DNA from: Bacteroidota bacterium
GTDB taxonomy: Bacteria > Bacteroidota > Rhodothermia > Rhodothermales > Bin80
Length of the DNA stretch: 64,000 bases
Assembly (NCBI GenBank): GCA_026709065.1
Contig: JAPOTS010000115.1
Coordinates: 5,929 to 69,928, forward strand
Reading direction: 5' to 3'
Shown here: piece after piece, positions 7,193 to 64,000 of the stretch
Numbering within the stretch: position 1 is the first letter of the stretch
How the letters are laid out: each line of letters starts with the position of its first letter
The notes under the pieces: generated by a model
Seen by the model: only the letters and a program-made list of their open reading frames with translations
The model's database searches: none
What the model was told of the DNA's origin: nothing
Made by a program: the position numbers and the translations under genes

Positions 7193-7196
7193 CAGC

Positions 7197-18151: not shown

Positions 18152-18154
18152 GAT

Positions 18155-18998: not shown

Positions 18999-19020
18999 GG
19001 AATTATCCAACTAACTGTAA
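18999..19020. repeat. Left terminal inverted repeat GGAATTATCCAACTAACTGTAA
   Basis: Matches the reverse complement of 24100-24121 (GGAACTATACGCCAACCTGTAA) at 16 of 22 positions. Confidence 0.6.
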
Positions 19021-19032
19021 CCAACTCCTATC

Positions 19033-27600: not shown

Positions 27601-27693
27601 TAAATCCTTATTTTTTGATCGTTGTCTTAGTGGAAAGGTTTGGTTAAACCGAATATCTGCCAATTGATGATAAATGTGAAATGTTTGAATATT

Positions 27694-34235: not shown

Positions 34236-34280
34236 TTGCACATGTACCGCTCACATAACCCTTCAAACGAAAGGATAACA

Positions 34281-35885
34281 ATGAAAAAAAGATTACTAAA
34301 TACAAAACATTGGATCTTACTGGTTGCATTTTGCACAGTACTGTCTTTTTCTGTGTCTAGTTGCACAGACGATTTTGTAGATTTGAATACGCCGCCCAAC
34401 CAGATCTCTGCAGAAAACATTGATGTGGGACTTGGACAAGCGTTTGCACGCTCTCAGTATTTAGGCATGTTGGGACTACACTGGGTGTTTCAAATTGGTG
34501 AAAACCTTTTTGCCGATTTGTATGCTCAGTACTATGCAACCACTGCAGAAAACTTTGATTCTGACCAGTATGTACAAGTTGGACGCTGGTCTGATCTTCT
34601 TTGGTCACGGTTCTACGGAAATGGAGCTCGGAGTTTAGATGTCGTTGAAAAATTCACGGCCGATCCAGAGAATCCAGGACTTGAGCTACCCAATGCTATG
34701 GCGAAGCTGTGGAGAGTTCAGCTGTATCACCGGATTACCGACTATTGGGGTCCGGTCCTGTATACGAATTATGGTAATGGAGAGACCTCTGTATCCTACG
34801 ATTCACAGCAGGATATCTATATGAATTTCTTTACTACACTTGATGAGGCACTCGCTGTAATGAATCAGAATCAAGGTGGGAACGTTTTTGCCGGGCACGA
34901 CCAAGTGTATAATGGAAGTGTAGACAGCTGGATTACCTTTGCCAATTCGCTTAGACTGCGCTTAGCCATGCGCATCCGATATGCAGATCCTTCCAAAGCT
35001 CAGGCAGAGGCCGAAAAGGCTGTAGCAGCTGGAGTGATGCTGGAGAATTCGCATAATGCTATGATGCTGACCGCTGCTGGCTCCGAACACCCCCTTACCA
35101 CCATTACCAACTGGGGTGAATTTCGTATGAGTTCGGCCATGGAAAGTCTTCTGGAAGGATACAATGACCCAAGGATAGAAACCTATTTCAGTGCTGCCAA
35201 GAATGGAGATGCAGATGGAGATGGCAGTGAATATGAGGGATTGAGAAACGGCTTGCCTCGTACACAGAAGGGTGCTTCAATCAACCCAGTGTATTCTGAT
35301 GTCGGTGAAAGGTGGGAGCCACCTCGTAGAGGCGGAACCCCCATTCGAGTTATGGGTGCATCAGAGATCTACTTCCTCCGTGCGGAGGGTGCTCTTTTGG
35401 GTTGGAATATGGGAGGAACTCCTCAGGAACTCTATGAGGAGGGGATTCGAGTTTCCATGACGGAAGAACGTATAGGAGCCGATATGGCTTCGATTGATGC
35501 ATATATCGCTAGTGAAAGTCTTCCATCAGCACCCCATGAGAACGAAGATCAATGGCAGGATACGCCACCACTGAGCGATATTCCCGTTGCATTTGACACA
35601 GGTGGTTCCATGGAGCGCCAGCTGGAGCAGATCATTACTCAAAAATGGTTGGCGATTTTTCCAGATGGAATGGAAGCTTGGGCCGAGTATCGCCGCACGG
35701 GTTATCCAAAGTTATACCCAATCATTAATTCGGAAAATCCAAATGTTGCCGCGGATGAGGTGATGCGACGCTTGACGTTCGTTACTAGCGAATATGATAA
35801 CAATACGGATGCCACGAACGCGGCCATATCACTACTTGGAGGCCCTGATCAGAATGACACGAAATTGTGGTGGGATAAGAAATAG
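34281..35885 (+). CDS. SusD/RagB-family nutrient-binding lipoprotein
   Basis: Start at MKKRLLNTKHWILLVAFCTVLSFSVSSCTDDF (lipobox). Follows SusC directly. C-terminal QKWLAIFPDGMEAWAEYRRTGYPKL motif. Confidence 0.9.
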   Translation: MKKRLLNTKHWILLVAFCTVLSFSVSSCTDDFVDLNTPPNQISAENIDVGLGQAFARSQYLGMLGLHWVFQIGENLFADLYAQYYATTAENFDSDQYVQVGRWSDLLWSRFYGNGARSLDVVEKFTADPENPGLELPNAMAKLWRVQLYHRITDYWGPVLYTNYGNGETSVSYDSQQDIYMNFFTTLDEALAVMNQNQGGNVFAGHDQVYNGSVDSWITFANSLRLRLAMRIRYADPSKAQAEAEKAVAAGVMLENSHNAMMLTAAGSEHPLTTITNWGEFRMSSAMESLLEGYNDPRIETYFSAAKNGDADGDGSEYEGLRNGLPRTQKGASINPVYSDVGERWEPPRRGGTPIRVMGASEIYFLRAEGALLGWNMGGTPQELYEEGIRVSMTEERIGADMASIDAYIASESLPSAPHENEDQWQDTPPLSDIPVAFDTGGSMERQLEQIITQKWLAIFPDGMEAWAEYRRTGYPKLYPIINSENPNVAADEVMRRLTFVTSEYDNNTDATNAAISLLGGPDQNDTKLWWDKK

Positions 35886-35956
35886 TTGTCTACAGGGCTA
35901 CAAAGTCTTATCATACATCCTTTTAATTACGGAATACTCTCCTAATTAGGATCGGA

Positions 35957-36007
35957 ATCACCCTCTACTTTAGTCGAAAGACACAGAGTAGAGGGTGATT
36001 TATTTAT
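35957..36007 (+). terminator. Rho-independent terminator candidate after the susD-like gene
   Basis: A 13-bp perfect stem, ATCACCCTCTACT (35957-35969) with AGTAGAGGGTGAT (35987-35999), and a 17-nt loop, followed by TTTATTT. Confidence 0.6.
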
Positions 36008-36067
36008 GGAAGAGACACAATCTCCTTCATCAGTATTCTCCAACGCCATCCCTAATCCGTAGGAACA

Positions 36068-39000
36068 ATGAAGCATTTTATCGGAGTGGAAAATCTTCCT
36101 GGTAAAATCACTGCTATCACAAGTGTTTTCATTGGAGGCTTGATCAGCCTTAGCACTGCCGGGTGTGGAAAGAATCCTTCTTCCCCTGCCATGTTTGAGC
36201 GGATCATGCCATCTCATTCAGGGATTCATTTTGTCAACAACGTGTCCTACACGGACTCGCTTAATATCTATTCCTACAATAATTTTTATGCTGGCGGTGG
36301 AGTTGCACTTGCGGACTTTAATGGAGATTCTCAACTAGATATTTACTTGGTCAGTAATCAAGATACCAACAGGCTGTATCTGAATCAAGGTGGTTTTGTA
36401 TTTGAAGATGCAACCGAAACGGCAGGAGTGTCGGGTGCTTTCCCATGGTCTACTGGTGCAAGTGTGGTAGATATTAATGCCGACGGCTTCCCAGATTTAT
36501 ATGTCACAAATGCGGGGGCATTCCAATCCGAGTTTCGATCAAATGAACTGTTTATCAACAATGGAGATGGAACATTCACCCAGAGAGCTCAGCATTATGG
36601 GCTTGCAGATGAAGGTTACTCCATTCATGCCGTATTTTTTGATTATGATCGTGATGGTTTATTAGATGTTTACATCGCTAACAATTACCATTCAAAACCC
36701 ATTGCAGCGTATGATCCAAGCCAGTTGGATCGCACCGTTGCATACTTTGAAGGTGGTGACCGGTTGTACCGTAATGAAGGACAATCTTTTTTAGATGTAA
36801 CCGCTTCCGCGGGCATATACAGTTCGGAGGCAGGATTTACTCTCGGGGCCACTGCAGGTGATCTCAATCGAGACGGATGCATGGATCTCTATGTCTCAAA
36901 CGATTTCTTTGAGCGGGATTATCTCTATATCAATCAATGCGATGGAACCTTCAAGGAATCGCTTCAACAAACATTCTCAAGCATCAGCACCACATCTATG
37001 AGTGGTGATATTGCAGATTTGAATAATGATGGTGCCCCAGAGATCTTTATATCGGATATGCTCCCAGCCACACACGCGCGCATTAAGAGCGTGTCCAACT
37101 TTATAGAATGGGAAAAATACCTTGAAGAAGTTCGCCTTGATTACCATCACAAATTTCTTCGAAATACACTCCACTTGAACAATGATGATGGGTCATTTAG
37201 TGAGATTGGCCGCTATGCAGGGGTGGAATCAACCGATTGGAGTTGGGGTGGGTTGATAGCCGATTTTAGCCTGAATGGATGGCGAGAGATCTTTGTTCCA
37301 AACGGATTCTATAAAGATGTCACGGACAAAGATTTACTGATGGCTTCTGCAGGCCTTCGTGCTACGGGGCTCCAAGGTCAATCGTTTGTTCGACAAGTGA
37401 TAGAAATGATGCCAAGTGTGCCCATTTCAAATCACATGTTTCAAAACATGGGATCAATGCGATTCGCTGACAGGGCTATGGATTGGGGATTGGATACACC
37501 AGGATTTTCAAGTGGAGCTGCTTATGGAGATTTGGACGGAGACGGAGATCTTGACCTTGTTGTTAATAATGTGAACATGGAGGCATTCATCTATGAGAAT
37601 AAAGCCATAGAGCAGTTTCCTAATCGTAGCTGGATCAGCATTGAATTACTCGGAGAGTCACCCAATGTCATGGCAGTAGGGGCTCAAGTTGATGTTAAGC
37701 ATCAAGATCAATTCTGGTATATAGAACAGATGCCTCAGAGAGGGTTTCAGTCATCAGTAGATCCTGTGCTTCATTTGGGGCTTGGCTTAGAGGTTGACCG
37801 CTTGGATACGGTATTGGTGAGCTGGCCTGATGGGCGCATTTCATTATTATCTAACATTGAAACGCATCAGCGACTTTCTCTTGATCAGCGCGATGCAGTC
37901 TGGCCTGATTCAAGCCATCAACGACTTTCTTCAGATGGGTTGACATATGCTGATCCTTTTCTGACAGATATATCCATAAACTTGGGGGCTATGTGGAGTC
38001 ATATTGAGCAACCCTTCAATGATTTTCAGGATTCACCATTGCTGTTCCATATGCGATCAACAGAAGGGCCTCCCCTTTGTCCACAGGATTTTGATTCGGA
38101 TGGGCGCGATGATGTGTTTGTTGGTGGAGGGAGAGGACAGCCAGGCATGCTACTCAAACATATCACAGATGGACAACTGATCCAAACTCATCAGCCCATC
38201 TTGGAAGAAGATAAGAATGCAGAAGATGTTGTGTGCGAGTGGGTAGACCTCAATGGGGATGGTCGTCCAGAGTTGTATGTTGCAAGTGGAAGCAGTGAAT
38301 TTCCGAGCGGACATCCTGATCTATCAGATCGCGTGTATGAGATAAATCCGGACGGTTTTCTTCAGCGTTTTGAATTTCTGTTACCCAACTCTAAGACTCC
38401 GACAGGAGTTGTTCGTGCGGGTGATCCTGACATTGATGGGGATGTAGATATTCTAATTGGAATTCGCCATGGTGCCACATATGGCCAACCTGTGGATATC
38501 CAGCTTTTATCCAATGATGGTGATGGGAGGTTACATGATGCGACACAACAAATGATACCTGAAATTTCTGAGTTATCTATTCCAGGTATTACAGATGCGC
38601 AATGGGGAGACCTCAACAGAGATGGATATCCTGACTTGGTAGTCGTTGGAGAGTGGATGCCCATCATGATATTTCTCAATCAAGATGGAATTCTACAGCG
38701 TATTGATCCAGAAAAGATAGGGTTATCAAATACATCGGGATGGTGGCAGTCTGTTGAGCTCTCGGATCTCAATGGAGATGGTGCTTTAGATATCATTGCT
38801 GGTAATCATGGACTTAACTCACGCTTCAAGGCCAGTCCAAGTCAACCACTTGAGTTATGGGTTCATGACTTTGATCGTAATCAGCAATTGGATCAGATCA
38901 TCTCAGGCTATGATAAGACGGGCGGTCCATGGCCGTTTGCTCAGCGCGAGTTTCTTCTGTCATATTTTGGTCTTGCTCCCTTTATTGCCCGAAGTCAGAT

Positions 39001-39517
39001 GGGCTTTGGGCAACAGGAACTGCAGATGATTTTTCAGCGCCTGCCCCATTTATCTCCGCTTGCCGAACCATTTGACTCCTATGCTACCATGACAGTCCAT
39101 GATCTCTTTAGCGATGAGTTAAACCATGCCCTACATTATTCAGCAGAGCTCATGGAATCCGTGGTTGCTTGGAATCAGCAAGATGGCACATTTGAGCTTG
39201 AAGTGCTACCGTTTCGCTCGCAGTTGACACCTGTTTACGGCATTTTTACTGAGGATTTTGACGCTGATGGACGCTCTGAAATCCTCATCGGAGGTAATTT
39301 ATATAACGCAATTCCTCAGGCGGGGCGTTATGATGCGGGATATGGCATCATGCTAACCCAAGACTCTACGGGGCAGTATGTAGAGGTCCCTCCAATCGAA
39401 AGTGGTTTTCATATTGAAGGAGAAATTCGTGCGATTAAAGGCCTGCGTTCTCAGCACCATCTGTACATTGTTGTTTCCACCAGTGGAGGCCTGCTTCATC
39501 TATTTCGCGTTGAGTAG
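36068..39517 (+). CDS. FG-GAP/VCBS repeat lipoprotein with ASPIC/UnbV domain (CRTAC1-like)
   Basis: 1149 aa with lipobox LSTAGCG. Repeated DxNGDGxxD(L/I)(Y/V)V motifs. An UnbV/ASPIC-like segment reads WISIELLGESPNVMAVGAQVDV. Confidence 0.85.
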   Translation: MKHFIGVENLPGKITAITSVFIGGLISLSTAGCGKNPSSPAMFERIMPSHSGIHFVNNVSYTDSLNIYSYNNFYAGGGVALADFNGDSQLDIYLVSNQDTNRLYLNQGGFVFEDATETAGVSGAFPWSTGASVVDINADGFPDLYVTNAGAFQSEFRSNELFINNGDGTFTQRAQHYGLADEGYSIHAVFFDYDRDGLLDVYIANNYHSKPIAAYDPSQLDRTVAYFEGGDRLYRNEGQSFLDVTASAGIYSSEAGFTLGATAGDLNRDGCMDLYVSNDFFERDYLYINQCDGTFKESLQQTFSSISTTSMSGDIADLNNDGAPEIFISDMLPATHARIKSVSNFIEWEKYLEEVRLDYHHKFLRNTLHLNNDDGSFSEIGRYAGVESTDWSWGGLIADFSLNGWREIFVPNGFYKDVTDKDLLMASAGLRATGLQGQSFVRQVIEMMPSVPISNHMFQNMGSMRFADRAMDWGLDTPGFSSGAAYGDLDGDGDLDLVVNNVNMEAFIYENKAIEQFPNRSWISIELLGESPNVMAVGAQVDVKHQDQFWYIEQMPQRGFQSSVDPVLHLGLGLEVDRLDTVLVSWPDGRISLLSNIETHQRLSLDQRDAVWPDSSHQRLSSDGLTYADPFLTDISINLGAMWSHIEQPFNDFQDSPLLFHMRSTEGPPLCPQDFDSDGRDDVFVGGGRGQPGMLLKHITDGQLIQTHQPILEEDKNAEDVVCEWVDLNGDGRPELYVASGSSEFPSGHPDLSDRVYEINPDGFLQRFEFLLPNSKTPTGVVRAGDPDIDGDVDILIGIRHGATYGQPVDIQLLSNDGDGRLHDATQQMIPEISELSIPGITDAQWGDLNRDGYPDLVVVGEWMPIMIFLNQDGILQRIDPEKIGLSNTSGWWQSVELSDLNGDGALDIIAGNHGLNSRFKASPSQPLELWVHDFDRNQQLDQIISGYDKTGGPWPFAQREFLLSYFGLAPFIARSQMGFGQQELQMIFQRLPHLSPLAEPFDSYATMTVHDLFSDELNHALHYSAELMESVVAWNQQDGTFELEVLPFRSQLTPVYGIFTEDFDADGRSEILIGGNLYNAIPQAGRYDAGYGIMLTQDSTGQYVEVPPIESGFHIEGEIRAIKGLRSQHHLYIVVSTSGGLLHLFRVE

Positions 39518-51126: not shown

Positions 51127-51536
51127 TGTTAGAGAAATATTTTCTTCTTAAAGATTCCCACTTGACTGAATCGCTTGATCAAGGAACCAACACCTGGATC
51201 AATTATCCCAATCCGGTTTCATCTGGATTGTTTGTAGCCGTTGCCGAAATTTTCCCTGGAAAAGGTCATGACTTTCACTGCCACCCTGGACGTGAAGAGT
51301 TGATTGTGGTGATGCAAGGATCCATTGAACAATGGATTGGAGAAACATGTAAAGTTCTGACCGAGGGTGATGCAGTGATGATTCCCGAAGGAGTTCCGCA
51401 TGCCTCCTTCAATACGGGTTCAATTCCCACGACCCTCGTTGTGTCTCTCACGCATCCAGAACTTGAGCTTCCGCTCTCCGAAGACTTATCCACCCAAAGG
51501 CCTTGGAATACACTTCGTTCTACTGATTCTTTCTGA
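51126..51536 (+). CDS. Cupin domain protein
   Basis: 136 aa. GHDFHCHPGREELIVVMQG...GDAVMIPEGVPHA has a cupin motif 1/2 arrangement. The start overlaps the upstream stop (TAATG). Confidence 0.7.
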   Translation: MLEKYFLLKDSHLTESLDQGTNTWINYPNPVSSGLFVAVAEIFPGKGHDFHCHPGREELIVVMQGSIEQWIGETCKVLTEGDAVMIPEGVPHASFNTGSIPTTLVVSLTHPELELPLSEDLSTQRPWNTLRSTDSF

Positions 51537-54484
51537 TGAAATCCATCTATTTTATTAGCACTCTCTTTCTCATTTTGACAGGCTGTTCTGGGGAGACAGT
51601 CCTGCGTTATACAACCGAGAGTAATGGCATAGGTTTTCATGAACTCCAACTGCCTCTAACCCCCGAGGAAACACTCACACAACTTGAAGTTCCAGAAGGA
51701 TTTAAGGCTCATATTTTTGCTCATGAACCCGATATCGTCAATCCAATTGCTCTCACTTGGGATGAGCGTGGACGACTATGGGTGGTTGAATCAACCAACT
51801 ATCCCCATGATCATGTTGGTGAAAAATCAGGCAGGGATCGTATCACCATTTGTGAGGACACCGATGGAGATCTTCGTGCAGATACCTTTATACGCTTTGC
51901 GGAAAATCTCCCCCTTACCACTGGAATTGCACTTGTGAAAGATGGGGCTATTGTTGGTCAAGCCCCCCACCTTGTCTTGCTTAAAGATACCGATGGCGAT
52001 GATCGTGCAGACCAACAACAGATCCTTGTCAAAGATGCCTTTGGTACGTATGATACGCACGCGGTCATGAGTAATCTGAAAATCGGGATTGATAATTTTC
52101 TTTGGGGAGCAGTCGGATACAGTGGACTCTACGAACCTGGGCATGCACCCGATCCTGATGCACTGACTCTAAAAAGGGGAATCTTCCGGGTGGGTATTGA
52201 TGGAACACAGCTTGAACCGATTGCCGAGTTTAGCAATAATACATGGGGGCTAGGCATTGGCGAGGATAATACGATCTATGGATCTACGGCAAATAATAAT
52301 CATGCAGTCGTTGTAGGGATTCCCCTACGCTATGAAGCTGGACTGAATGTTGCATATGTCCAAAGCCATTATGCTGTGAAACATTCTTCTCCTCGTCCAC
52401 TTCAACAGGTAGATTTTCGGGATGGATTCACTGCCGCTGCTGGTGCGTTTCCATACAATGGCCGACGTTTCCCGTCAGACTATTGGGGAGCTCTCATGGT
52501 CGCAGAACCGACGGCACATATTGTACATGTCGGACAACTTGAGCCTGATGGGAGTATTGAAAAAGAATCGGAAGGAGAAATTTTAAATATCCTTGCCAGT
52601 CGTGATGAATGGGTTGCTCCTGTTTTTGCAGATATTGGCCCTGACGAAAATCTTTGGATCGCGGATTGGTACAATCCAGTTATTCAGCATAACCCCGATC
52701 GGCGGGGGATGGTGAATCAGATTTGGAATGATAGCACGGGGCCAGGCAATGCCCACCTCAACCCACTACGTGATCAAACCCATGGACGCATTTATGTGGT
52801 TTCTTATGGAGAGTCTTCTGGGCAACATCATCTGTCCTATGATGAACCTCAGGGATTGGTGGATGCACTCAGCCATACCAACCAATTCTGGCGACTGACC
52901 GCTCAGCGAATGTTGGTAGAAAGTAAGCCTGATGGGATTGAAGAGGATCTCATACAACTCGTTACTCGTCATGCAATAGATGAAACAGGATTTGATCCAG
53001 GAGCGGTGCATGCACTTTGGACATTAAAGGGACTTGGAGCTGATGATGCATTAGAAATCGCTTTGGATGCGGCTCTGCCACACCCTTCACCTGCCGTGCG
53101 AAAGGCCAGTATTCAAACTCTTCCTCATCGTTACAAAAGTAGTGAATTGTTGATACGGCATAATGCTTTACGTGACGAGAACTTGCATGTACGCTTACAT
53201 GCTCTATTGGCCGCCATTGATATTGGATTTCAATCCCATCCACGAATTTTATCAGAGGCGATGAAGTCATTGCGAGGAGGAGATTCATGGATCATTGCGG
53301 CATACTCTGCTCTGGCTCCTATCGGCATGATTGAGACTCCTCCCGATCCAATTCTAATTCCTGAACCTGAACCTGAATTACTTCCCCCTGCAGTGTTGAT
53401 GCTAACAGCACCTGATGGTCTAATGAGATTTGAGCCGACCGTTTTGCATGCTTTTTCTGGTCAACCCATTACGATCGACTTTATGAATCAGCATCCAGAT
53501 CTCCACAATGTTGTCATCCTACCGTCTAACACAGATATAGAGGCGTTAGGGGAAGATCTAAACCAGTATATGACCGATGCATCTAGTTCGGATACAGACT
53601 ACATTCCTCCATCACGCCTTGATGAGATTCTCGGATCAAGTTCTGTATTGTCTCAAAGCGACTCGTCAACGGATACAATAGGATCTCTTGCCAAAGGAAG
53701 CTATCCATTTTTGTGTACTGTACCAGGACATTGGTCCCTCATGCAGGGAATGCTGCATGTCATGGATCCCCCTGAACTCCCACGAAACGATGCTGGCTGG
53801 ACTTGGACTGGATCGGATCCCCAGCTTGCCCCGATCGTGTCTCTGGCAGGAGCTCAAAGCCGCACCTCTCAGTCCCACTATCATGCTCGAGTATTTGGAT
53901 TTACAGATGGACAGATCCTCTATGGTGCAGGGGATCGTACATTTGTTTACACAGAGGCAGCGGATGAAACCTTTGAGCGTCTACTTGAAGATGCTTCTCT
54001 GCTTATGCTTGCCAATAATAAGCCTATAGAGAGACTCGAAAGTCGTCAAGCAATCTTCAATCATGTCAACAATGGTCGTCCATTAATCATTATTCATCCA
54101 GCGACATGGTATAATTGGGAGGATTGGCCAGAATATAATGAGTTACTTGTGGGTGGCGGTGCACGAAGCCATGAGCCACTTCAACCCTTTTCAGTGGAAA
54201 TTCTCCAACGAGATCATCCGTTAATGGAGGATGTTCCGACGAACTTTGAAATTACCGATGAATTGTATCGTGCTGAGTTGAACCCAGATTCAAACGCAAA
54301 TATTTTAGCCATTGGTCGGTCCTTTGAAACCGGTGAAACCTATCCAGTGATCTGGACGCGCCAGATTGGAGATGCTATGATTTTGGTCAACACATTAGGG
54401 CATGATGACCGTGCACATGATCACATGGCATATAAACGCATCCTATTCAATGCACGTGGTTGGTTGCTGCAGGAAACCAAGTAG
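51536..54484 (+). CDS. Multidomain lipoprotein: membrane-bound-dehydrogenase-type beta-propeller, HEAT repeats, azurin-like cupredoxin and a ThuA-like domain
   Basis: 982 aa with lipobox LILTGCSG. The N-terminal region (LEVPEGFKAHIFAHEPDIVNPIALTWDERGRLWVVE, DTDGDLRAD, DTDGDDRAD) looks like the Planctomycetes/Verrucomicrobia dehydrogenase domain. HEAT-like PSPAVRKASIQTL and NLHVRLHAL. Blue-copper ligand pattern H657...C727-TVPG-H732-WSL-M736. The C-terminal ThuA-like region reads IIIHPATWYNWEDWPEY...LGHD. The start overlaps the upstream stop (TGATG). Confidence 0.75.
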   Translation: MKSIYFISTLFLILTGCSGETVLRYTTESNGIGFHELQLPLTPEETLTQLEVPEGFKAHIFAHEPDIVNPIALTWDERGRLWVVESTNYPHDHVGEKSGRDRITICEDTDGDLRADTFIRFAENLPLTTGIALVKDGAIVGQAPHLVLLKDTDGDDRADQQQILVKDAFGTYDTHAVMSNLKIGIDNFLWGAVGYSGLYEPGHAPDPDALTLKRGIFRVGIDGTQLEPIAEFSNNTWGLGIGEDNTIYGSTANNNHAVVVGIPLRYEAGLNVAYVQSHYAVKHSSPRPLQQVDFRDGFTAAAGAFPYNGRRFPSDYWGALMVAEPTAHIVHVGQLEPDGSIEKESEGEILNILASRDEWVAPVFADIGPDENLWIADWYNPVIQHNPDRRGMVNQIWNDSTGPGNAHLNPLRDQTHGRIYVVSYGESSGQHHLSYDEPQGLVDALSHTNQFWRLTAQRMLVESKPDGIEEDLIQLVTRHAIDETGFDPGAVHALWTLKGLGADDALEIALDAALPHPSPAVRKASIQTLPHRYKSSELLIRHNALRDENLHVRLHALLAAIDIGFQSHPRILSEAMKSLRGGDSWIIAAYSALAPIGMIETPPDPILIPEPEPELLPPAVLMLTAPDGLMRFEPTVLHAFSGQPITIDFMNQHPDLHNVVILPSNTDIEALGEDLNQYMTDASSSDTDYIPPSRLDEILGSSSVLSQSDSSTDTIGSLAKGSYPFLCTVPGHWSLMQGMLHVMDPPELPRNDAGWTWTGSDPQLAPIVSLAGAQSRTSQSHYHARVFGFTDGQILYGAGDRTFVYTEAADETFERLLEDASLLMLANNKPIERLESRQAIFNHVNNGRPLIIIHPATWYNWEDWPEYNELLVGGGARSHEPLQPFSVEILQRDHPLMEDVPTNFEITDELYRAELNPDSNANILAIGRSFETGETYPVIWTRQIGDAMILVNTLGHDDRAHDHMAYKRILFNARGWLLQETK

Positions 54485-54572
54485 TATGGGATTTGAATGA
54501 ACGTATCTACATCACAACAAACCCCTTGTTGATGTAATCTTGCCTGAATCTTGTCTGTTCCTGTCGGTCAAA

Positions 54573-55790
54573 ATGAACAGTGGAGTCCTGCCTTTACTGG
54601 TTTGCATGGTAGCTTGCTCGTCGGATCCCCGCCCCAATATTGTCCTTATTATGGCTGATGATATGGGCTATAAAATCCTTTTGATCAATGGTGGCTCAGT
54701 TATGACACTCTAAATTTAGACTCCCTTGCTGAGCATGGAATGCGCGCTTTACCATAAATTCTCTACCCCACTCTGTACCCCCTCAAGGGTACAATTGATG
54801 ACGGGGAAATATAATTTTAGAAACTACCGTGGATTTGGGATTTTGGCTCCTCAGGAGCAGATCATGGCTAACTTGTTACAAGATCTTGGATACACCAATG
54901 GGGTTGTGGGCAAGTGGCAACTCTATGGAAACGAGTATCTGCGAACATTGGCAGAAAGTGATGGAGCCTCTCCTACTCAAGCTGGGTTTGAAGAATTTGC
55001 TCTGTGAAGCTATTTGAACTTGGCAGTCGGTATTATTCCCCTACCATTCATTATTCGGGTAACGAGCCTATAGTATTTCCAGACTCCTACGGGCCGATCT
55101 TTTTGCCGACTATATTGAAGAATTCTTCCAACCACATCAGGAAGATTCATGCTTTTTGTATTTCCCAATGGTTCTTCCGCACGATCCATTTTTCCAACTC
55201 CAAGTCACCCCGATTTTGATCTTTCTTTAACGGATAGCGACCCAAATATTTTCCTGTCATGACCAACCATGTGGATCAAGTTGTAGGCCGTATAACAGAT
55301 CAACTTTATGCATTGGATCTTGACCGTAAAACAGTGCTCTTATTCACGACAGATAATGGCTGCATCGAAGCATTACATCACGTCTCATGTGATGGGTTTG
55401 ATCCAAGGCAATAAAGGGTATCTGATACCGCTGGAACGCATGTACCCCTGATTGCATACTAGCCCAGTATTATCAATCCGAATATTGTTGATGATGCACT
55501 CATTGATTTTACGGATTTTCTTGCGACCTGATGGAAGTCGCTGGAAGTACAGTTCCAGATCAGTTTGTATCTGATGGACTGAGTTTCTAAGGTCATTTGA
55601 CTGGGAATGCAGATACAACCCGCCAGTGGATATACTGCCATTATCGTCCAGGGTGGGGGTCATTTAAGCCAGCACGATGGGCACAGAATCATCACTGGAA
55701 CTCTATGGAGATGGTAAGTTTTTCAACTGGTCACAGATGATGAAGAAGTTAAGACAGAGTTTATTCAACTTGAACGTCTATCTGCGCAGG
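54573..55790 (+). pseudogene. Sulfatase (arylsulfatase-like) pseudogene with multiple frameshifts and stops
   Basis: Fragments lie in different frames: signal peptide plus PNIVLIMADDMGY; LNLDSLAEHGMR; STPLCTPSRVQLMTGKY (C-x-P-x-R formylglycine motif); VVGKWQL; LLFTTDNG. Confidence 0.7.
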
Positions 55791-55879
55791 CATCGTACAT
55801 GATCATTCGCATTAACTTCCACGGTATAATCTCCCTAACAGTAAACAATCGCTTAATGATGCTCATGTCGGCAGAGTGA

Positions 55880-56620
55880 TTACTCCCAATGTACATAAGA
55901 ACCTACCTTTTCTCCAAACATAATTTTTTGGAGAGTGCCTGAGCGCGTTATATTGCAGACAACAATCGGTAGCTTAGACTCTTCACATAAAGTGAAAGCC
56001 GTCTTATCCATCACGCGGAGCCCACGACGGATCACCTCGTGTCCGCCTATATAGGCAAAATGCTCAGCGTGTTGATGTAACTCTGGATCATCCGAATAAA
56101 TTCCGTCTACACGGGTGGCTTTAATCAGCACATCGGCATCAATTTCTAAGGCACGCAGAGCTGCCGCTGTATCAGTGGTGAAGTAGGGATTCCCTGTTCC
56201 AGATCCAAAAATTACAATGCGTCCCTTCTCTAAATGACGAATCGCTCGTCTTCGAATAAAGGGCTCCGCAATCTCTTCCATCTTTATCCCCGAAAGCAGT
56301 CTAGTCTTGAGAGATAGCTGCTCCAAGGCATCCTGCAAGGCCATAGCATTGATCATAGTCGCAAGCATTCCCATATAATCACCGTGAGCACGGGTCATCC
56401 CTTGTGTGGTAGTCATCTCGCCACGAAATATATTCCCTCCACCAATAACGATGGCTAACTCAACATCATGATCTATGACGGATTTAAGGTCCTTTGCCCA
56501 AGCATCAAGGACCTTCGCATCAATGCCGAAAGATTGATCTCCAAGAAGGGCTTCACCGCTAAGTTTGATCAATACCCGTTTGTAAATGGGCTTCTCTGAG
56601 GGAGCGGTTTGTAATGCCAT
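55880..56620 (-). CDS. pyrH: UMP kinase
   Basis: YKRVLIKLSGEAL, IVIGGGNIFRG and GTGNPYFTTDTAAALRA. I prefer the start at MALQTAPSEK, which avoids overlap with tsf. Confidence 0.95.
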   Translation of the reverse strand: MALQTAPSEKPIYKRVLIKLSGEALLGDQSFGIDAKVLDAWAKDLKSVIDHDVELAIVIGGGNIFRGEMTTTQGMTRAHGDYMGMLATMINAMALQDALEQLSLKTRLLSGIKMEEIAEPFIRRRAIRHLEKGRIVIFGSGTGNPYFTTDTAAALRALEIDADVLIKATRVDGIYSDDPELHQHAEHFAYIGGHEVIRRGLRVMDKTAFTLCEESKLPIVVCNITRSGTLQKIMFGEKVGSYVHWE

Positions 56621-56631
56621 CACATTGGGAA

Positions 56632-57462
56632 CTATTCCCCCAGCGCACAACGAACAAACCCCTTCACATCGGCACCTGCCGCTTTGAGAACCTCTCGGAC
56701 TCGCTGAGAGGCATCCTTGACAAATGGTTGCTCAACAAGAACATTGTCCTTAAAAAATCGCTCCAACTTCCCCTGAGCAATCCTATCAAGAATCTGTTCA
56801 GGCTTGCCCTCCATTCGTGCAGACTCTCGGCCAATTTCAAATTCTTTATCTTGAATCTCCTGAGGGACATCGTTGCGCTGAGCTGCAATAGGGTTAAGTG
56901 CAGCAACCTGCATGGCGATATCTCTACCCGTAGAAGACAAATCGCCTTGACCAGTAAGAGAAACCAAAACGCCCAAGCGGTCTCCAGGGTGGATATAATC
57001 AATCACTTGACCTCCTTCAGAAGACAGGGTGAAAAATCGGCGCACTTGAAGCTTTTCTCCGATCTTGCCCGTGAGATCAGTGATCGTTTCCATGACAGTA
57101 CGGCCATGATTAAGTGGCAAGGCTAATAAATCGTCAAGCGTTGAGGGTTGGCAATTGAGAATTACATCAGCAACCGAATTTGTAAATAAAACAAACTCAT
57201 CATTGCGCGCAACGAAATCGGTTTCACAATTCACCTCAACAATAATTCCCGTTTGCTGAGAATCATCAATGCGGGTGACAATCAACCCTTGAAGTGCCTC
57301 GCGCTCAGCCCGTTTGGCCGCAACTTGTTGACCTTTCTTACGCAACAGATCAATGGCAGCATCCAAATCACCACCAGAATCTTGTAAAGCACGCTTGCAA
57401 TCCATCATGCCAGCGCCCGTAAGGTCACGAAGTTGTTTTACATCTTTTGCTGAAATAGACAT
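56632..57462 (-). CDS. tsf: Elongation factor Ts
   Basis: 276 aa with UBA-like N-terminus VKQLRDLTGAGMMDCKRAL. Confidence 0.95.
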   Translation of the reverse strand: MSISAKDVKQLRDLTGAGMMDCKRALQDSGGDLDAAIDLLRKKGQQVAAKRAEREALQGLIVTRIDDSQQTGIIVEVNCETDFVARNDEFVLFTNSVADVILNCQPSTLDDLLALPLNHGRTVMETITDLTGKIGEKLQVRRFFTLSSEGGQVIDYIHPGDRLGVLVSLTGQGDLSSTGRDIAMQVAALNPIAAQRNDVPQEIQDKEFEIGRESARMEGKPEQILDRIAQGKLERFFKDNVLVEQPFVKDASQRVREVLKAAGADVKGFVRCALGE

Positions 57463-57526
57463 GAAATCGTTTAGTTAAGTAGGTTTCGGGAGGACGGTCA
57501 ACACAAGTTCAAAAGCTTAGGAGCAA

Positions 57527-58324
57527 TTAAGTGCTTACCGTCCCCTTTTGCTTCTGATCACTCTGACGCTTCGCCTCTGCAGCCTTTTTATTTTCAGCGT
57601 CAATTTGGCCCGATTTTCGTCCTTCACTGATAGCCTGCGCTATAGTATTGGTCACAATCTGAATGGATTTGAAGGCATCATCATTACAAGGAATCACATG
57701 ATTCACTAAATCTGGATCACAGTTGGAATCAACTAAGGCAATAATCGGAATTCCAAGTTTACGAGCTTCATTTACAGCAATGCGTTCCCTGCGAATATCC
57801 ACAACAAATAAACAGCCAGGAGTGCGTGGCATAGATGCAATACCCCCCAGATTCCTCTGCAACTTGTCTAATTCACGAGACTTCATCAAACGCTCTTTCT
57901 TTTTCAGTTGATCAAGCGTACCATCCTCCCCCATTTTAGCTAAATTCTCCATACGCCGGATGCTGTTACGAATCGTCTGAAAGTTGGTGAGGGTTCCACC
58001 GAGCCATCGTTCAACCACATAGGGGGAATCGCACGATTGCGCCGCTTGGCGAACAGTGTCTCTGGCCTGCTTTTTTGTGCCAACAAACAAAATAGATTTT
58101 CCCTGTTTAGCAAACCGAGCTGCAACTGCCGCTGCCTGCGAAAGCATCTTTTGAGTTTGGAGCAGATCAATGATATGGATCCCATTGCGTTGCATAAAGA
58201 TGTAGCTACGCATTTTTGGATTCCATCGACTGGTCAAATGCCCAAAATGTGTTCCAGCTTTAAGCAGATCATCAACAGGGACGATATGATCGCTGGGGTT
58301 GGTCGTAGAGTGTGTATTGGTCAT
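57527..58324 (-). CDS. rpsB: 30S ribosomal protein S2
   Basis: 265 aa; LLKAGTHFGHLTSRWNPKM and WLGGTLTNF. Confidence 0.95.
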   Translation of the reverse strand: MTNTHSTTNPSDHIVPVDDLLKAGTHFGHLTSRWNPKMRSYIFMQRNGIHIIDLLQTQKMLSQAAAVAARFAKQGKSILFVGTKKQARDTVRQAAQSCDSPYVVERWLGGTLTNFQTIRNSIRRMENLAKMGEDGTLDQLKKKERLMKSRELDKLQRNLGGIASMPRTPGCLFVVDIRRERIAVNEARKLGIPIIALVDSNCDPDLVNHVIPCNDDAFKSIQIVTNTIAQAISEGRKSGQIDAENKKAAEAKRQSDQKQKGTVST

Positions 58325-59349: not shown

Positions 59350-60480
59350 TTACTCAAGTTTATTGAGCATGATGGGCATGATCAAAAACGTGAGATGAAT
59401 GTCATCATCTTGTGGGACGGGCTTTAACAGAGCAGCTCGATTGGGAATGCCCATAGATAGCGTAATCTCGTCTGACGGTAGATATCGGAGCAGTTCCAAG
59501 AGATACTGGGCATTGAAACCGATTTGTGTTGGCTCCCCACTGTAGGAGCAATTGACAGTTTCGGATCCTTTGGAAGAGCGTTCAACATCCACTGCATTGA
59601 TGACAATTGTATCATCTTTGCAATCTAAAACGATATGATTTGAGTTCTCCGATGCAAAAATATTGACGCGTTGAATACTACCGAGAAGCTCTCTTCGATC
59701 CACAAGAACAATCTTGTCATTTTCTTCTGGGATTGCACGTTCATACTTTGGGAATTTCGCGTTAATCAGCCGGCTGATGACCTGTGCGTATCCTAAGTCA
59801 AGACATAGATGATTCTCGGTAATCTGAATTGAGCATTTATCAAGACCGTCGATGCGTGCAAATTGTTGAAATGCCTTATGAGGAGCTAAGGCTTTTACGT
59901 CTAGATCGCCATCATATGACTTGAAGATGCAACGTGTGAGACGATGTCCATCAGTTGAAACAACTCGTGCGGAGCCCTCCAGAATTTCAAACAGAATTCC
60001 CATCATTCCAGGTCGTGAAGCATCTTGGCCAGTCGCAAACCCGACCAAATCAAATCCCGTCTTTAGGAGTTGACGGTCAAATTGAATCTCTTGCGCATCA
60101 GTGATAGACGGAAATTCAGGGAAAGATTCTCCTTTATATCCCATCCAGTCATACTGCCCACTCGCGTGAGAAAGAACGATCTTACATTTGTCGTCAATCT
60201 CACAGGTAATCGGGATATCGGGAAGGGATCTGCATGTATCTAGAAATTCTTGGGCAGGAACAGCGATCACATTAGGTTCATCACCTTCTTCGCTTAGAAA
60301 ATTGACTGGAATCTTATGACGGATGGATATTTCCATGTCAGTAGCACGAAGTTCTAGGAGATCATTCTTGCGCTCCAAGAGGACACATTTGAGAATTTCC
60401 TTTTCAGGTTTTTTTGGTAAGGCACCACATACACCATCAAGTGCACGATAGAGATCGGTATTAACAGTTGTAAATTTCAT
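59350..60480 (-). CDS. dnaN: DNA polymerase III beta sliding clamp
   Basis: 376 aa with three-domain clamp length. Lies immediately downstream of dnaA. Confidence 0.93.
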   Translation of the reverse strand: MKFTTVNTDLYRALDGVCGALPKKPEKEILKCVLLERKNDLLELRATDMEISIRHKIPVNFLSEEGDEPNVIAVPAQEFLDTCRSLPDIPITCEIDDKCKIVLSHASGQYDWMGYKGESFPEFPSITDAQEIQFDRQLLKTGFDLVGFATGQDASRPGMMGILFEILEGSARVVSTDGHRLTRCIFKSYDGDLDVKALAPHKAFQQFARIDGLDKCSIQITENHLCLDLGYAQVISRLINAKFPKYERAIPEENDKIVLVDRRELLGSIQRVNIFASENSNHIVLDCKDDTIVINAVDVERSSKGSETVNCSYSGEPTQIGFNAQYLLELLRYLPSDEITLSMGIPNRAALLKPVPQDDDIHLTFLIMPIMLNKLE

Positions 60481-60493
60481 AGTAGGAAGTTAT

Positions 60494-61909
60494 TCAATCA
60501 GATGATAGATGAACCTTGCGCCGAATTTCTTCTACTCGGTTCTGGTAATTTGCATCGGTTTCAATAAGGTTATTGACGCTTTTAATTGCGTGAACAACGG
60601 TCGAGTGATCCCGACCTCCAAATTGTAGGCCGATCGCTTTGTGAGTATAATCAAGTTCTCTACATAGATACATTGCGAGTTGTCGAACTTGAACGATTTC
60701 TCTTTTCTTAGTTTTTTCATGGAGCCGATGTTGGTCAATGCCAAAAAACTCACAGACCAGCTTTTGAACCCTGTCAATTGAAAGTGTTGCATGTGGGCGT
60801 TGAACGAAGTCTTTCAATGCAATCCTGACCAACTCTTCATTAATGTCTTGTTGGGTATAGGTGGCTTGCGCAAGAAGTCGAACGAGAGCGCCTTCAAGTT
60901 CGCGAACATTTTTTGTGATATTGTGGGCAATATAATCAACGACGGGAGAAGGAAGATTTAGTCCAAATTCTTCGGACTTTCTCAGTAGGATCGCTGTACG
61001 AGTTTCTAAGTCTGGTGGTTGTAGATCTGCCTGAAGGCCCCAACAGAAGCGGGACAGTAGGCGCTCCTCAATTCCGCTAATCTCTTTCGGTGGACGGTCA
61101 GCACTTAGTACGATCTGATTGCCGTTTTGTTGGAGATCATTGAAAATGCAGAAGAACTCCTCTTGGGTTTTTTCTTTTCCACCAAAAAACTGGACATCAT
61201 CTATAATGAGCAGATCAATTTTCCTGTACGCACTCGAGAATTTCGAAATCTGCTTTTCTTGAATGGCCTTAACAAAATCGGTTGTGAATCGCTCACTGGA
61301 AACATAGAGGACTTTTTTCTCAGGATGGTAATCGCGAACATGATTACCAATCGCCTGCATCAAATGCGTTTTCCCAAGCCCAACACCGCCATAAATTAAA
61401 AATGGATTGTACGCAGTTCCACCAGGACAGTCAGCAATGGCTTGAGAGGCGCTGTAAGCAAGATTGTTGCAGTCCCCTACAATGAATTTGTCAAACGTGT
61501 AGCTTTCAATGAGAGGGCTTTTTTTCTTAGAGTCGTTAGTATTTGTTACCTTCGGCTTAGGATTTATGCTTGTTTTCGTGGATGCTTGGACATGATAAGA
61601 TTGCTGGTCTTGCTCAGTGCTTTGTGTCACGACCACTTCATAATATAACAGACTCTGCTCCCCAAGAACTTGGGTCAAAGCCGAACGAATCAGCCCGCTA
61701 TACTGACCTTCAAGATATTCATAATGGAACGGTGCAGGAACGCGAATAATCAACTTTATGTTACCCGATTCTTCCTCTAAAACCACAGGTTCTAATTTGG
61801 TGAACCATGTTGCAAAGCCTTGGGGCGCAATGTGATTCCGAATAATAGCGAGGCATTCCCTCCAAGCAGATTCAGCAGTATGAGGCATAAAGGGAAAAGT
61901 CTGATTCAA
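60494..61909 (-). CDS. dnaA: Chromosomal replication initiator DnaA
   Basis: 471 aa. AAA+ Walker A GGVGLGKTHLMQAIGN, Walker B LLIIDDVQF, and C-terminal DNA-binding domain GGRDHSTVVHA. Confidence 0.95.
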   Translation of the reverse strand: MNQTFPFMPHTAESAWRECLAIIRNHIAPQGFATWFTKLEPVVLEEESGNIKLIIRVPAPFHYEYLEGQYSGLIRSALTQVLGEQSLLYYEVVVTQSTEQDQQSYHVQASTKTSINPKPKVTNTNDSKKKSPLIESYTFDKFIVGDCNNLAYSASQAIADCPGGTAYNPFLIYGGVGLGKTHLMQAIGNHVRDYHPEKKVLYVSSERFTTDFVKAIQEKQISKFSSAYRKIDLLIIDDVQFFGGKEKTQEEFFCIFNDLQQNGNQIVLSADRPPKEISGIEERLLSRFCWGLQADLQPPDLETRTAILLRKSEEFGLNLPSPVVDYIAHNITKNVRELEGALVRLLAQATYTQQDINEELVRIALKDFVQRPHATLSIDRVQKLVCEFFGIDQHRLHEKTKKREIVQVRQLAMYLCRELDYTHKAIGLQFGGRDHSTVVHAIKSVNNLIETDANYQNRVEEIRRKVHLSSD

Positions 61910-61998
61910 TCTGAATTAAGAAAAGCTGATCTTGTAAAAATAGGAAGAACTACAAATATAACCATTGAATAAGCTAGGATATAACAATGTTGCAAAAG

Positions 61999-62211
61999 TT
62001 ATCCACAACTTGTTCACAAAAATTTGACCATTTCAAATCACTCTGAAATCTGGAAAATTAGTGACAATTTTAAGGCGAGTTGACATTTCGGGGTAGAAAA
62101 TGACTAATTTCCGCCCAAAATATGCCAATAAATCGCTTTTCACTAAAAGTTACGACACTCAGATCAAATTCACGCCCAATCCAGTCTAAACTTATCCACA
62201 AGTTATTCACA
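61999..62211. promoter_or_regulatory. DnaA boxes upstream of dnaA
   Basis: Perfect TTATCCACA at 61999-62007 and 62192-62200. TTATTCACA at 62203-62211 has 1 mismatch and TTGTTCACA at 62010-62018 has 2. The surroundings are AT-rich. Confidence 0.6.
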
Positions 62212-62952
62212 GTTGTAAGAATTTTTCTAAATGAAATTGTAAAATTCTCAAATCGTTACAATTTCAGGCAATAGTCTATCAAATTTAGTGTATAAATATG
62301 CGGATTTGCTCCCATATTGCTAAGCATTGATGACCAGATTTTTCGAGGCATTAGTAATTCTTAGAGCAGACTTAAGTGATCCTATGAACAGGTATTTAAG
62401 TGGCTTTTGACAATCATTTGAAAGTCAATCCTATCAGATGGTTCAATGGGTAGATTTCATTTCTCCAATGATGATCAGATCTAAGTTTCATTCACGTCAT
62501 TGTTGTGGCCTTTTTGAATAGAGAGTGTTCCATTCCAATCTAATATGCAATGTCATCAGCACTAGTCAATCTATGTTTGATCAGTTGACGATACTCTGGA
62601 GTGCCAATAATGACGATCGTTGAACTGTGACTGATGGACTTAATAGGCACGAAGGGGCCATTCTATCTGCTATGATTTTGTCAAATTCAAGGAGGATGGA
62701 CGTTGAGACATTACGTAGTGTGCCGTAAATGACGATGGGTTTTCTCAACAAAGCATGTGCTACAATGGTATCTATACGAAAATCCCAAATGACACGATCC
62801 ATTGGTATGGATCCACTGACGAAGATGACGCTTACTGAATTCTGACATAGGCGAATAGAGGATCAACACTGAATTCGCGATCAGATCGCAGTTCATTCTG
62901 ATTATTTACTGAAAAAAATTGTAAAAAATCTTTTAAACGTGATGTACATATT

Positions 62953-63276
62953 ATGAAGAGCAACCCACCCGTTTCTGACCTGCCTTTGAACCTCTGTTTG
63001 ATCGCTATGCTTGGCGAGCAGAGTGCTCAGCGCGTACTGGAACTGGTGCACAAATTAGGAGACGATGGCGAAGAACTGGTGATGCTGTTGATTACAGAAT
63101 TGATCACTGCTAAAGAAGAGATCTTCAATGCACAAGAGACGATAGACTACCTTCAACGTCGTTTGTATGGGCAAAATCGGGAGCGTTTTACAGATCCCGA
63201 ACAAACTGAGCTCTTTGATGACTATATCCCTGAGGTGCATGCCCCCGAGAGTGAGGAGGAGGAAGAATTCGTGTAA
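62953..63276 (+). pseudogene. IS66-family transposase N-terminal fragment
   Basis: The 107-aa ORF has a coiled-coil and LQRRLYGQNRERFTDPEQTELFDD, resembling the IS66 N-terminal RxLFGxKSExxxxxQxxLF block. No downstream catalytic region follows. Confidence 0.5.
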
Positions 63277-63303
63277 ATTCCGTTCATTGATCAATTCACC
63301 AAA

Positions 63304-63522
63304 ATGGCTCTTTGCCCAATGGGGCGTATGACCTCTCGGGTTTTGGAGGCCGTTCGCCCCCACGCTGAGCAGGAGATTTTTTATGTATGGGATCCTCTGG
63401 CAGCGGTTTACTTGGTGCATCCTAATGTTGTGAGCTTGGAGCGATTTCCAGTTTCGGTTCAACCATCGGGCCCAATGCGGGCCCCTCCAGAAAGTCCAAC
63501 ACAGGATGTGAGTTTTCGGTAG
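63304..63522 (+). pseudogene. Possible nucleoside hydrolase C-terminal relic
   Basis: YVWDPLAAVYLVHPNVVSLERFPVSVQ resembles the (H)DPLAxAxxxxPxxxxxxxxxVxVE block of IU-nucleoside hydrolases. It is an isolated fragment. Confidence 0.3.
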
Positions 63523-64000
63523 CCATCAATGCAGAAGGGAACTGTTTATGCGTTACTTTATCGCCCCGTTTGTTGAGCTGACACTGTGATGCAATTGCAT
63601 GCGAGTTTGGCTTGAATTGAGCGATCAGACCAATGGTACTAATGATGGGCAATCACGGATATCTGGGCTTCTCAAATGAACCATCTTTGAAAGATATTGT
63701 AGGAAATGTAGTTTGTGATTGCATTCCCTGTCTAATGGATCTTTTGTAACCTACAAGAATCCTTGATCCAGGGTGCATTGCAAAGGGGGCCAGAACTAAA
63801 AATGTGCTTATTCAGGGTAGTGTGAATCTGAGAGTATGACCCATGATGAGTGTTGTCTGAGGTTTTTGTTTTGACACTATTGTTCTGAAATCATACGATA
63901 TCAGTGATCAAAGATACCGCACGAGTTATTGAGTTTTGTAATTTACGAATAGATATGCTATTATTTTATGATTCACCCCCATTTTTTCTTGTTTTTGAGT

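Follow-up and report, generated by a model that had tools for sequence, protein, structure and literature searches.

A predicted blue copper domain at the heme c position of a DUF7133 propeller lipoprotein from a sponge-associated Rhodothermales bacterium

The PVC-type heme-binding CxxCH proteins of Planctomycetota, Verrucomicrobiota and Lentisphaerota combine a beta-propeller, a HEAT-like arm, an electron carrier that follows the arm and, frequently, a ThuA domain; this reference family is itself without known function. Here we describe a relative of these proteins that is encoded on a 64,000-nucleotide stretch of contig JAPOTS010000115.1 (assembly GCA_026709065.1), hereafter the window, from a bacterium of the Rhodothermales. 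The gene at positions 51536..54484 encodes a 982-aa protein, hereafter the fusion protein, that carries a predicted cupredoxin (blue copper) domain instead of the CxxCH/cytochrome domain. Its ThuA domain is C-terminal, whereas that of the heme-binding proteins is N-terminal. No cytochrome family matched the fusion protein in Pfam and NCBIfam scans.

Auracyanins A and B of Chloroflexus and azurin share with the cupredoxin domain of the fusion protein the fold, the ligand pattern His...Cys-x4-His-x3-Met and an Asn after the first His. They are single-domain carriers, free or lipid-anchored, whereas the domain described here lies inside a 982-aa protein, at an identity of ~25%. The ThuA of the thuEFGKAB operon of Sinorhizobium and Agrobacterium, which serves the use of trehalose and sucrose isomers, has the same profile and fold as the C-terminal domain of the fusion protein, and related loci repeat its link to Gfo/Idh/MocA proteins. 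In contrast to the operon protein, which is itself without a defined biochemical role, the ThuA of the fusion protein is exported and fused to a propeller/copper module, and the window holds no ThuB-like gene. In quinohemoprotein dehydrogenases a propeller is joined to a one-electron carrier. Their working logic resembles that proposed below, except that their carrier is heme and the predicted carrier of the fusion protein is copper. For a copper outlet, the closest functional parallel is offered by the periplasmic tryptophan tryptophylquinone (TTQ) amine dehydrogenases, which give single electrons to a type-1 copper protein, from which they pass to cytochrome c and on to an oxidase; the known pairs are methylamine dehydrogenase with amicyanin and aromatic amine dehydrogenase with azurin. 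The likeness does not extend beyond the working principle; these enzymes act on amines, their catalytic folds and cofactors are of unrelated kinds, and their copper partners are separate proteins. Finally, the BT2158-family glycoside 3-dehydrogenase pathway of Bacteroides shares the theme of periplasmic glycoside oxidation in Bacteroidota (PMC8121099), but here the relative of that family is a neighbouring gene in other Rhodothermales, not a part of the fusion protein, and the window lacks it.

The fusion gene is a single open reading frame (ORF) of 982 codons that starts with ATG. Its product begins with MKSIYFISTLFLILTG-C17, a lipoprotein signal with the lipobox L-T-G-C. An earlier reading of the DNA, made from the letters without database searches (the sequence-only reading), had called the protein a lipoprotein with three cysteines and no CxxCH motif. 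Both statements agree with the sequence: the only cysteines are residues 17, 106 and 727, and CxxCH was not found anywhere in the 982 residues. The Cys-containing N-terminal signal is kept in orthologues, and relatives have signal peptides that either contain Cys or are plain. The same reading had named a propeller, HEAT repeats, a cupredoxin and a ThuA domain, and all four calls were upheld by profile scans, by phmmer against PDB sequences and by Foldseek searches with an AlphaFold2 model of the fusion protein (72 sequences as input; mean predicted local distance difference test score, pLDDT, 88).

The ligand pattern of the cupredoxin domain is the azurin-type set already recognised in the sequence-only reading, with NQHPDL-H657-N around the first His and C727-TVPG-H732-WSL-M736 around the other ligands. 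Two family profiles matched the domain below their cut-offs, namely Cupredoxin_1 of Pfam (E 1.7e-3, 18.8 bits vs 27) and the azurin family TIGR02695 (E 6e-5, 23.4 bits vs 105). A phmmer search of PDB sequences matched auracyanin A (E 2.7e-8), in an alignment that pairs both the first His and the C-x4-H-x3-M motif. Foldseek placed the modelled domain on 2aan (auracyanin A, TMt 0.87), 6kol (0.83) and azurins (0.77-0.80), at a probability of 1.0. Furthermore, relatives score above the cut-off of Pfam Copper-bind (e.g., P0084 with 42.6 bits vs 21.2), and 83 homologues, which span both of the main domain orders given below, all keep H657, N658, C727, H732 and M736. Because of the auracyanin A match, the match of the modelled fold, the relatives that pass Copper-bind and the invariant ligands, we consider the predicted cupredoxin assignment secure despite the sub-threshold profiles.

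Using the propeller domain of the fusion protein as a single phmmer query against 1.84 billion cluster representatives, we found DUF7133 propeller matches in 9,964 50%-identity clusters at E up to 1e-3, and in 870 at E up to 1e-30. The best 150 of the 9,964 clusters were sorted by custom per-domain profiles and the CxxCH motif. Twenty-seven of them had a cupredoxin without a heme motif, 66 had CxxCH after the HEAT arm without a cupredoxin, and 57, mostly fragments, had neither carrier; heme and cupredoxin occurred together in none of the 150. Pfam Cytochrom_C was confirmed in the heme types, of which the two with names belong to Lentisphaeraceae and Pirellulaceae. Heme c and cupredoxin are therefore mutually exclusive alternatives at one position after the HEAT arm, which bears out the earlier idea that a cupredoxin stands in place of the heme domain. 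This either-or occupancy is a strong hint that the family does electron transfer. Since an electron-carrier domain is present in 93 of the best 150 clusters, and an N-terminal ThuA in 45 of the 66 heme types (~two-thirds), the usual plan of the family is ThuA-propeller-arm-carrier, the carrier being either heme c or blue copper. ThuA is consequently no peculiarity of the fusion protein, as the sequence-only reading might have led one to think; ThuA-DUF7133-HEAT-(heme or Cu) is the common architecture, and only the C-terminal placement is a minority order.

Domain orders were scored in 85 loci, in none of which a heme motif was found. ThuA-DUF7133-HEAT-Cu was the order in 58 loci and DUF7133-HEAT-Cu-ThuA, that of the gene described here, in 21; four loci had DUF7133-HEAT-Cu. 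Neighbour joining of 112 propeller domains gave a rough tree, without support values, in which the copper types fall at three or more separate places and the clade of the fusion protein stands apart from the large ThuA-first copper clade. This topology suggests that the heme/copper exchange happened more than once.

Relatives of the fusion protein are abundant. A search of 5.8 billion proteins, grouped in 90%-identity clusters, returned more than 7,200 such clusters at E up to 1e-10. CxxCH was absent from all 120 relatives among the matches listed, and the motif C-[TS]-[VF]-P-G-H-W-x-x-M was kept in all but two fragments. At least 579 species genomes carry a relative (one genome per species scanned). 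The nearest of these genomes, among the matches listed, are those of sponge- and coral-associated Rhodothermales, and the other carriers are Flavobacteriia, Cytophagia, Sphingobacteriia, Chitinophagia and Saprospiria (Bacteroidota) and Gemmatimonadota. The sequence-only reading did not recognise the combination of domains as characterised; by these numbers the combination is not unusual, and its members are already annotated generically. Because thousands of public database entries carry precomputed domain hits, the architecture is an already catalogued, though uncharacterised, one and not a new kind. Literature searches found no published work on the DUF7133 family or on its copper variant.

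The names under which these proteins are stored need correction. NCBI names copper-type relatives either 'ThuA domain-containing protein' or 'PVC-type heme-binding CxxCH protein', and the second name is given to heme-free relatives with the copper motif (P0036, P0050, P0061, P0077, P0079, P0084, P0102 and P0116). For copper types it is a wrong and systematic misnomer, presumably triggered by the N-terminal TIGR02604 domain alone.

The propeller was matched by two family profiles. DUF7133 (Pfam PF23500) covers aa 43-423 with E 2.5e-94 (317 bits vs a cut-off of 27), and TIGR02604 of NCBIfam, the family suggested by the sequence-only reading, covers aa 55-425 with E 2e-61 and 208.3 bits, above its curated cut-off of 122.2. 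In the AlphaFold2 model the region of aa 43-423 is a six-bladed propeller. Among propellers, the lowest Foldseek E-values (1e-8 to 1e-6) belong to enzymes dependent on pyrroloquinoline quinone (PQQ) that resemble the soluble aldose dehydrogenases (sGDH), namely 2ism, 5min, 7cdy, 2g8s and 1c9u; the six-bladed fold of sGDH is also common to non-redox propellers. A profile of 51 propeller sequences gave only chance WD40 and lipase matches among PDB sequences, and no dehydrogenase or sGDH chain. By hhalign, the propeller profile aligned with Escherichia coli YliI (Asd; Pfam GSDH) alone at a probability of 10% and over one blade. Against five sGDH-family sequences, in an alignment rebuilt from PDB alignments, the probability was 20% (E 1e-3) and the match was collinear over 292 columns, with H175 opposite the catalytic His of the YliI NHFGGR motif at this low confidence. 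The hhalign result suggests homology between the propeller and sGDH, with proof beyond its reach.

Twelve propeller residues, P90, G137, D173, H175, G194, N235, G238, P369, D377, H385, R412 and R418, are invariant over the 112 propeller domains, which include heme, copper and truncated types. C106 was considered as a possible cofactor or redox Cys and was ruled out, because family members have either Cys or Leu there. The sequence-only reading spoke of a beta-propeller dehydrogenase, which is not established, as there is no match to an sGDH profile but only fold likeness and the hhalign result. 'Dehydrogenase' is a reasonable hypothesis for the propeller rather than a result; its basis is the likeness to the sGDH fold, the low-confidence alignment of H175, and the sugar-related neighbours and fusions described below.

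The HEAT call of the sequence-only reading is supported by the AlphaFold2 model, which has helical repeats at residues 438-593 with high pLDDT; HEAT_2 of Pfam matched at E 7e-5, under its curated cut-off. A custom profile of the arm region matches all relatives, heme types and copper types alike. The arm is followed by a stretch with pLDDT <50 (residues 597-613). The ThuA call was likewise confirmed by Pfam ThuA (PF06283), which covers aa 806-976 with E 2e-22 and 80.8 bits, above the gathering threshold of 33.4. Foldseek matched the domain to 4jqs, 4e5v and 1t0b at TMt 0.64-0.75, with E-values of 7e-10 to 3e-8 for 4jqs, 4pxy, 4e5v and 1t0b. Its invariant residues are Y805, N827, H854, H879, D908, E909, Y911, W940 and H956. 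A role as an amidotransferase was ruled out for this domain, because it holds no Cys.

Contigs of four independent sponge-metagenome runs cover the fusion gene with three single-nucleotide polymorphisms (SNPs; two synonymous, one S525G) and no indels, so the intact gene is not an assembly artefact. Compared with a 90%-identical orthologue, the ratio of nonsynonymous to synonymous substitution rates (dN/dS) was 0.135 overall; by module it was 0.07 (propeller), 0.29 (helical arm), 0.12 (cupredoxin) and 0.17 (ThuA), so that all four are under purifying selection. The linker between the arm and the cupredoxin had a dN/dS of 0.67. No second copy and no heme-type paralogue of the gene was found within the 64-kb window. 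Nine sponge-metagenome runs contained 93-100% of the words sampled from the window, at a depth of up to ~325x, and the source of the window is an abundant sponge-associated Rhodothermales bacterium.

Table 1 Coordinates of the fusion gene, its parts and its neighbours. Positions refer to the window, except in the last row, where they refer to the loci of relatives.
Feature	Position	Strand	Basis
PEP_hydrolase-like TIM-barrel protein, no signal peptide, first gene of triad	50245..51126	+	Pfam PF09370, E 1.6e-100
Cupin-domain protein, 136 aa, no signal peptide	51126..51536	+	Pfam Cupin_2, E 5.5e-13
Fusion gene, 982-aa exported lipoprotein (DUF7133 propeller, HEAT arm, cupredoxin, ThuA)	51536..54484	+	ORF, profiles, AlphaFold2
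Signal peptide with lipobox L-T-G-C17	51536..51586	+	Read from sequence
DUF7133/TIGR02604 six-bladed beta-propeller, aa 43-423, presumed catalytic module	51662..52804	+	Pfam, NCBIfam, Foldseek
HEAT-like alpha-helical repeat arm, aa 436-600	52841..53335	+	HEAT_2, AlphaFold2 model, custom profile
Pro/Glu-rich flexible linker, aa 601-617	53336..53386	+	Low pLDDT, dN/dS 0.67
Auracyanin/azurin-like cupredoxin, aa 618-745	53387..53770	+	phmmer vs PDB, Foldseek, ligand invariance
Predicted copper-ligand codons	H657 53504-53506; C727 53714-53716; H732 53729-53731; M736 53741-53743	+	Sequence
ThuA-like domain, aa 765-982	53828..54481	+	Pfam ThuA, Foldseek
Decayed sulfatase pseudogene	54590..55760	+	tblastn with L001 sulfatase, aa 3-391, two frames, stops and frameshifts
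Tat-signal Gfo/Idh/MocA protein of relatives	L001 5254-6573; L006 4197-5519; 9 other Rhodothermales loci	Opposite to triad	

The fusion gene is the third gene of a conserved triad (Table 1). One-nucleotide stop/start overlaps join the PEP_hydrolase-like gene to the cupin gene and the cupin gene to the fusion gene, from which we infer that the three genes are probably translated as a unit. A promoter and terminator scan of 49700-54800 gave a count no better than that of shuffled sequence. In related loci, the PEP_hydrolase-like gene stands upstream of the fusion gene in 23 cases, and the cupin gene directly adjoins it in 17 of the 19 loci that have a cupin. The triad is conserved from Rhodothermales (59-90% identity) to Arenibacter (44% identity). 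Flavobacterial and saprospiral loci of the triad type encode in addition a UPF0261 protein; recent work has identified this fold as that of a kinase (MarK; PMC12624787). The Arenibacter locus also holds GH43, aldose epimerase, glycerate kinase, a major facilitator superfamily (MFS) protein and a stand-alone ThuA. The sequence-only reading had described a self-contained module, which is doubtful; a one-electron carrier needs an outside acceptor, and the gene is coupled to two conserved cytoplasmic genes.

Sugar-related genes recur around relatives of both domain orders. In 11 Rhodothermales loci a Gfo/Idh/MocA protein of ~440 aa with a Tat signal is encoded upstream of the triad; in NCBIfam it matches best, though distantly, the BT_2158 glycoside 3-dehydrogenase family, with 129 bits vs an equivalog cut-off of 750. 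Around members of the ThuA-first subfamily, a cytoplasmic Gfo/Idh/MocA protein recurs in 45 loci, a xylose-isomerase-like TIM barrel akin to keto-sugar epimerases in 44 and an AraC regulator in 37; MFS transporters are also among the neighbours. Among relatives with additional domains (P0161, P0127 and P0228), one heme type and one copper type have a CBM_4_9 carbohydrate-binding module after the HEAT arm and ahead of the carrier domain, and a sulfatase domain is fused to the C-terminus of one Pirellulaceae family member. In the window the fusion gene is followed by a decayed sulfatase, whereas the closest orthologue, in locus L001, is followed by an intact sulfatase gene of 426 aa. The decay was reproduced in independent sponge-metagenome assemblies, and the SNP density in the pseudogene is ~5x that of the fusion gene. 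Taken together, the neighbours and fusions point to carbohydrate metabolism, naming no particular substrate, and they make sugar oxidation by the fusion protein plausible.

The triad and the sulfatase remnant form a four-gene block on the plus strand between pyrH (55880-56650, minus strand) and frr (49152-49721, minus strand), where it interrupts the usually contiguous rpsB-tsf-pyrH-frr cluster (49152-58324). The 90%-identical orthologue lies in another neighbourhood, with PFK, amt, glnB and a Gfo/Idh/MocA gene. No repeats were found flanking the block as a sign of a mobile element.

Our preferred reading, to which we give about an even chance, is that the fusion protein is a periplasmic carbohydrate oxidiser that passes electrons via type-1 copper to the aerobic respiratory chain, with the ThuA domain assisting and the product handled in the cytoplasm. 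The presence of a carrier domain in most of the nearest clusters argues that the propeller does redox chemistry. It would be the catalytic site, built like the PQQ-dependent soluble aldose dehydrogenases, in which the invariant D173 and H175 may provide a base and R412 and R418 may bind an anionic cofactor. Its substrate would be a sugar or glycoside in the periplasm, which may stem from sulfated host glycans, and electrons would exit singly via the blue copper centre that the HEAT arm carries. Their acceptor, in the periplasm or the membrane, would belong to the aerobic respiratory chain; sdhA and citrate synthase, which are also in the window, indicate an aerobic setting. The ThuA domain, which most family members carry at one of their two ends, may act on the same substrate or product or may dock a partner. 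The oxidised product would then be imported and processed by the co-transcribed cytoplasmic PEP-hydrolase-like TIM barrel and cupin, joined in flavobacterial relatives by the UPF0261 kinase-fold protein.

Several observations weigh against this reading. The sequence link between propeller and sGDH is weak: Pfam GSDH did not match the fusion protein at E up to 1, and the hhalign probability is low. Foldseek TM-scores to non-redox NHL, gluconolactonase and Drp35 propellers are as good as those to sGDH, a profile search of PDB sequences found no solved structure of a DUF7133 relative, and the cofactor of the propeller is not inferable from sequence. As far as literature searches showed, no member of the DUF7133 family has been experimentally characterised. 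In addition, the conserved neighbours of the DUF7133-HEAT-Cu-ThuA type of gene are cytoplasmic and without assigned function, and the Tat-exported Gfo/Idh/MocA protein of Rhodothermales orthologues is absent from the 64-kb window, in which no Gfo/Idh/MocA homologue was found, though one stands beside most relatives. Lastly, the direction of electron flow is fixed by none of the computed results, a point that also counts in favour of the reductase considered below.

A rather unlikely alternative makes the fusion protein the electron outlet for a partner, namely a Tat-exported Gfo/Idh/MocA protein of the ThuB/BT2158 kind, with tightly bound NAD(P), docked on the ThuA domain. The propeller-HEAT-copper part would re-oxidise this partner and send its electrons on to the respiratory chain, which would amount to a glycoside 3-dehydrogenase system of the ThuAB kind with blue copper as its outlet. 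Joint action of the two proteins has a precedent in rhizobia, where ThuA and the Gfo/Idh/MocA protein ThuB together form 3-keto-disaccharides, according to work cited in PMC8121099. The Tat-signal protein of the 11 Rhodothermales loci, with its best match to the BT_2158 family, is also in keeping with such an outlet, as are the BT2158-type enzymes themselves, which have no known acceptor for their re-oxidation (PMC8121099). However, the partner gene is not in the window, the Gfo/Idh/MocA protein of the larger ThuA-first subfamily has no signal peptide and is therefore cytoplasmic, the NCBIfam score lies far under the equivalog cut-off, and the conserved propeller would be left without a catalytic role.

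Distinctly unlikely is a reversed flow, in which copper (heme c in the relatives) takes respiratory electrons for the reduction of a periplasmic substrate by the propeller. Several periplasmic reductases admit electrons through high-potential type-1 copper or heme c, and both cytochrome cd1 nitrite reductase and nitrous oxide reductase pair a propeller with a one-electron entry domain; this established role speaks for a reductase, as do the weak Foldseek matches of the propeller and cupredoxin to nitrous oxide reductases. The TM-scores of these matches are poor (0.26), however, and nitrous oxide reductase is seven-bladed with seven His ligands, whereas the DUF7133 propeller has only two invariant His. 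The genomic context is one of sugar metabolism, not of denitrification or stress response.

Because the copper ligands are invariant and a heme alternative exists, it is very unlikely that the propeller is non-redox (a lactonase, lyase, hydrolase or binding module) and the cupredoxin a separate device, as for copper handling, or a structural remnant: Foldseek TM-scores to gluconolactonase 3e5z (0.67), Drp35 lactonase (0.62) and NHL propellers (0.68) are equal to or above those to sGDH-like enzymes, and no dehydrogenase family matches at profile level, but the four ligands and the adjacent Asn are unchanged in 83 sequences, the cupredoxin is under selection at a dN/dS of 0.12, and a c-type cytochrome at the same position in two-thirds of the classifiable relatives is hard to explain without one-electron transfer.

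Other features of the window were recorded alongside. A SusC-like TonB receptor, a SusD-like lipoprotein and a 1,149-aa FG-GAP/ASPIC-UnbV protein are encoded in succession at 31134-39517 (plus strand); an FG-GAP/UnbV protein of similar type is also encoded close to the fusion gene of Arenibacter (locus L004, 15644-19189), which may be coincidence. The DnaB helicase (734 aa, 44067-46271, minus strand) contains a mini-intein (Pfam Intein_splicing, residues 238-482) that interrupts DnaB_C. A 622-aa Mod methylase and an 875-aa Res helicase-nuclease form a Type III restriction-modification pair at 19573-24061 (plus strand). The genes dnaN and dnaA are adjacent at 59350-61909 (minus strand), so the chromosomal replication origin probably lies just beyond 61909. 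Stretches of >1 kb without an ORF of at least 150 aa (e.g., 7192-8596, 18151-19573, 27663-29330 and 61909-64000) may hide further pseudogenes, and a 962-aa ORF at 1224-4115 (minus strand) matched no Pfam family at E up to 1e-5.

DUF7133 is a very large family with no experimentally known function, and its copper branch is heme-free, common in Bacteroidota and often mislabelled. What we report is an annotation correction together with a testable hypothesis, and no new principle is shown. The alternation of heme and copper gives a simple spectroscopic handle (blue colour, electron paramagnetic resonance) for the first biochemistry of this orphan family. For the symbiont, the fusion gene has stayed under purifying selection while the neighbouring sulfatase decayed, so that it is probably of importance to the way the symbiont uses carbohydrates from its host or from seawater. 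For the family, we tentatively propose, with more doubt than confidence, that the copper types are previously undescribed periplasmic carbohydrate dehydrogenases, wired to respiration via a built-in blue copper centre and with ThuA as an integral catalytic or docking part. If this is true, it would give a first function to DUF7133 (~10,000 50%-identity clusters), to ThuA and to the PVC-type heme proteins, and it would mean that heme c and type-1 copper modules have been exchanged repeatedly on one enzyme scaffold.

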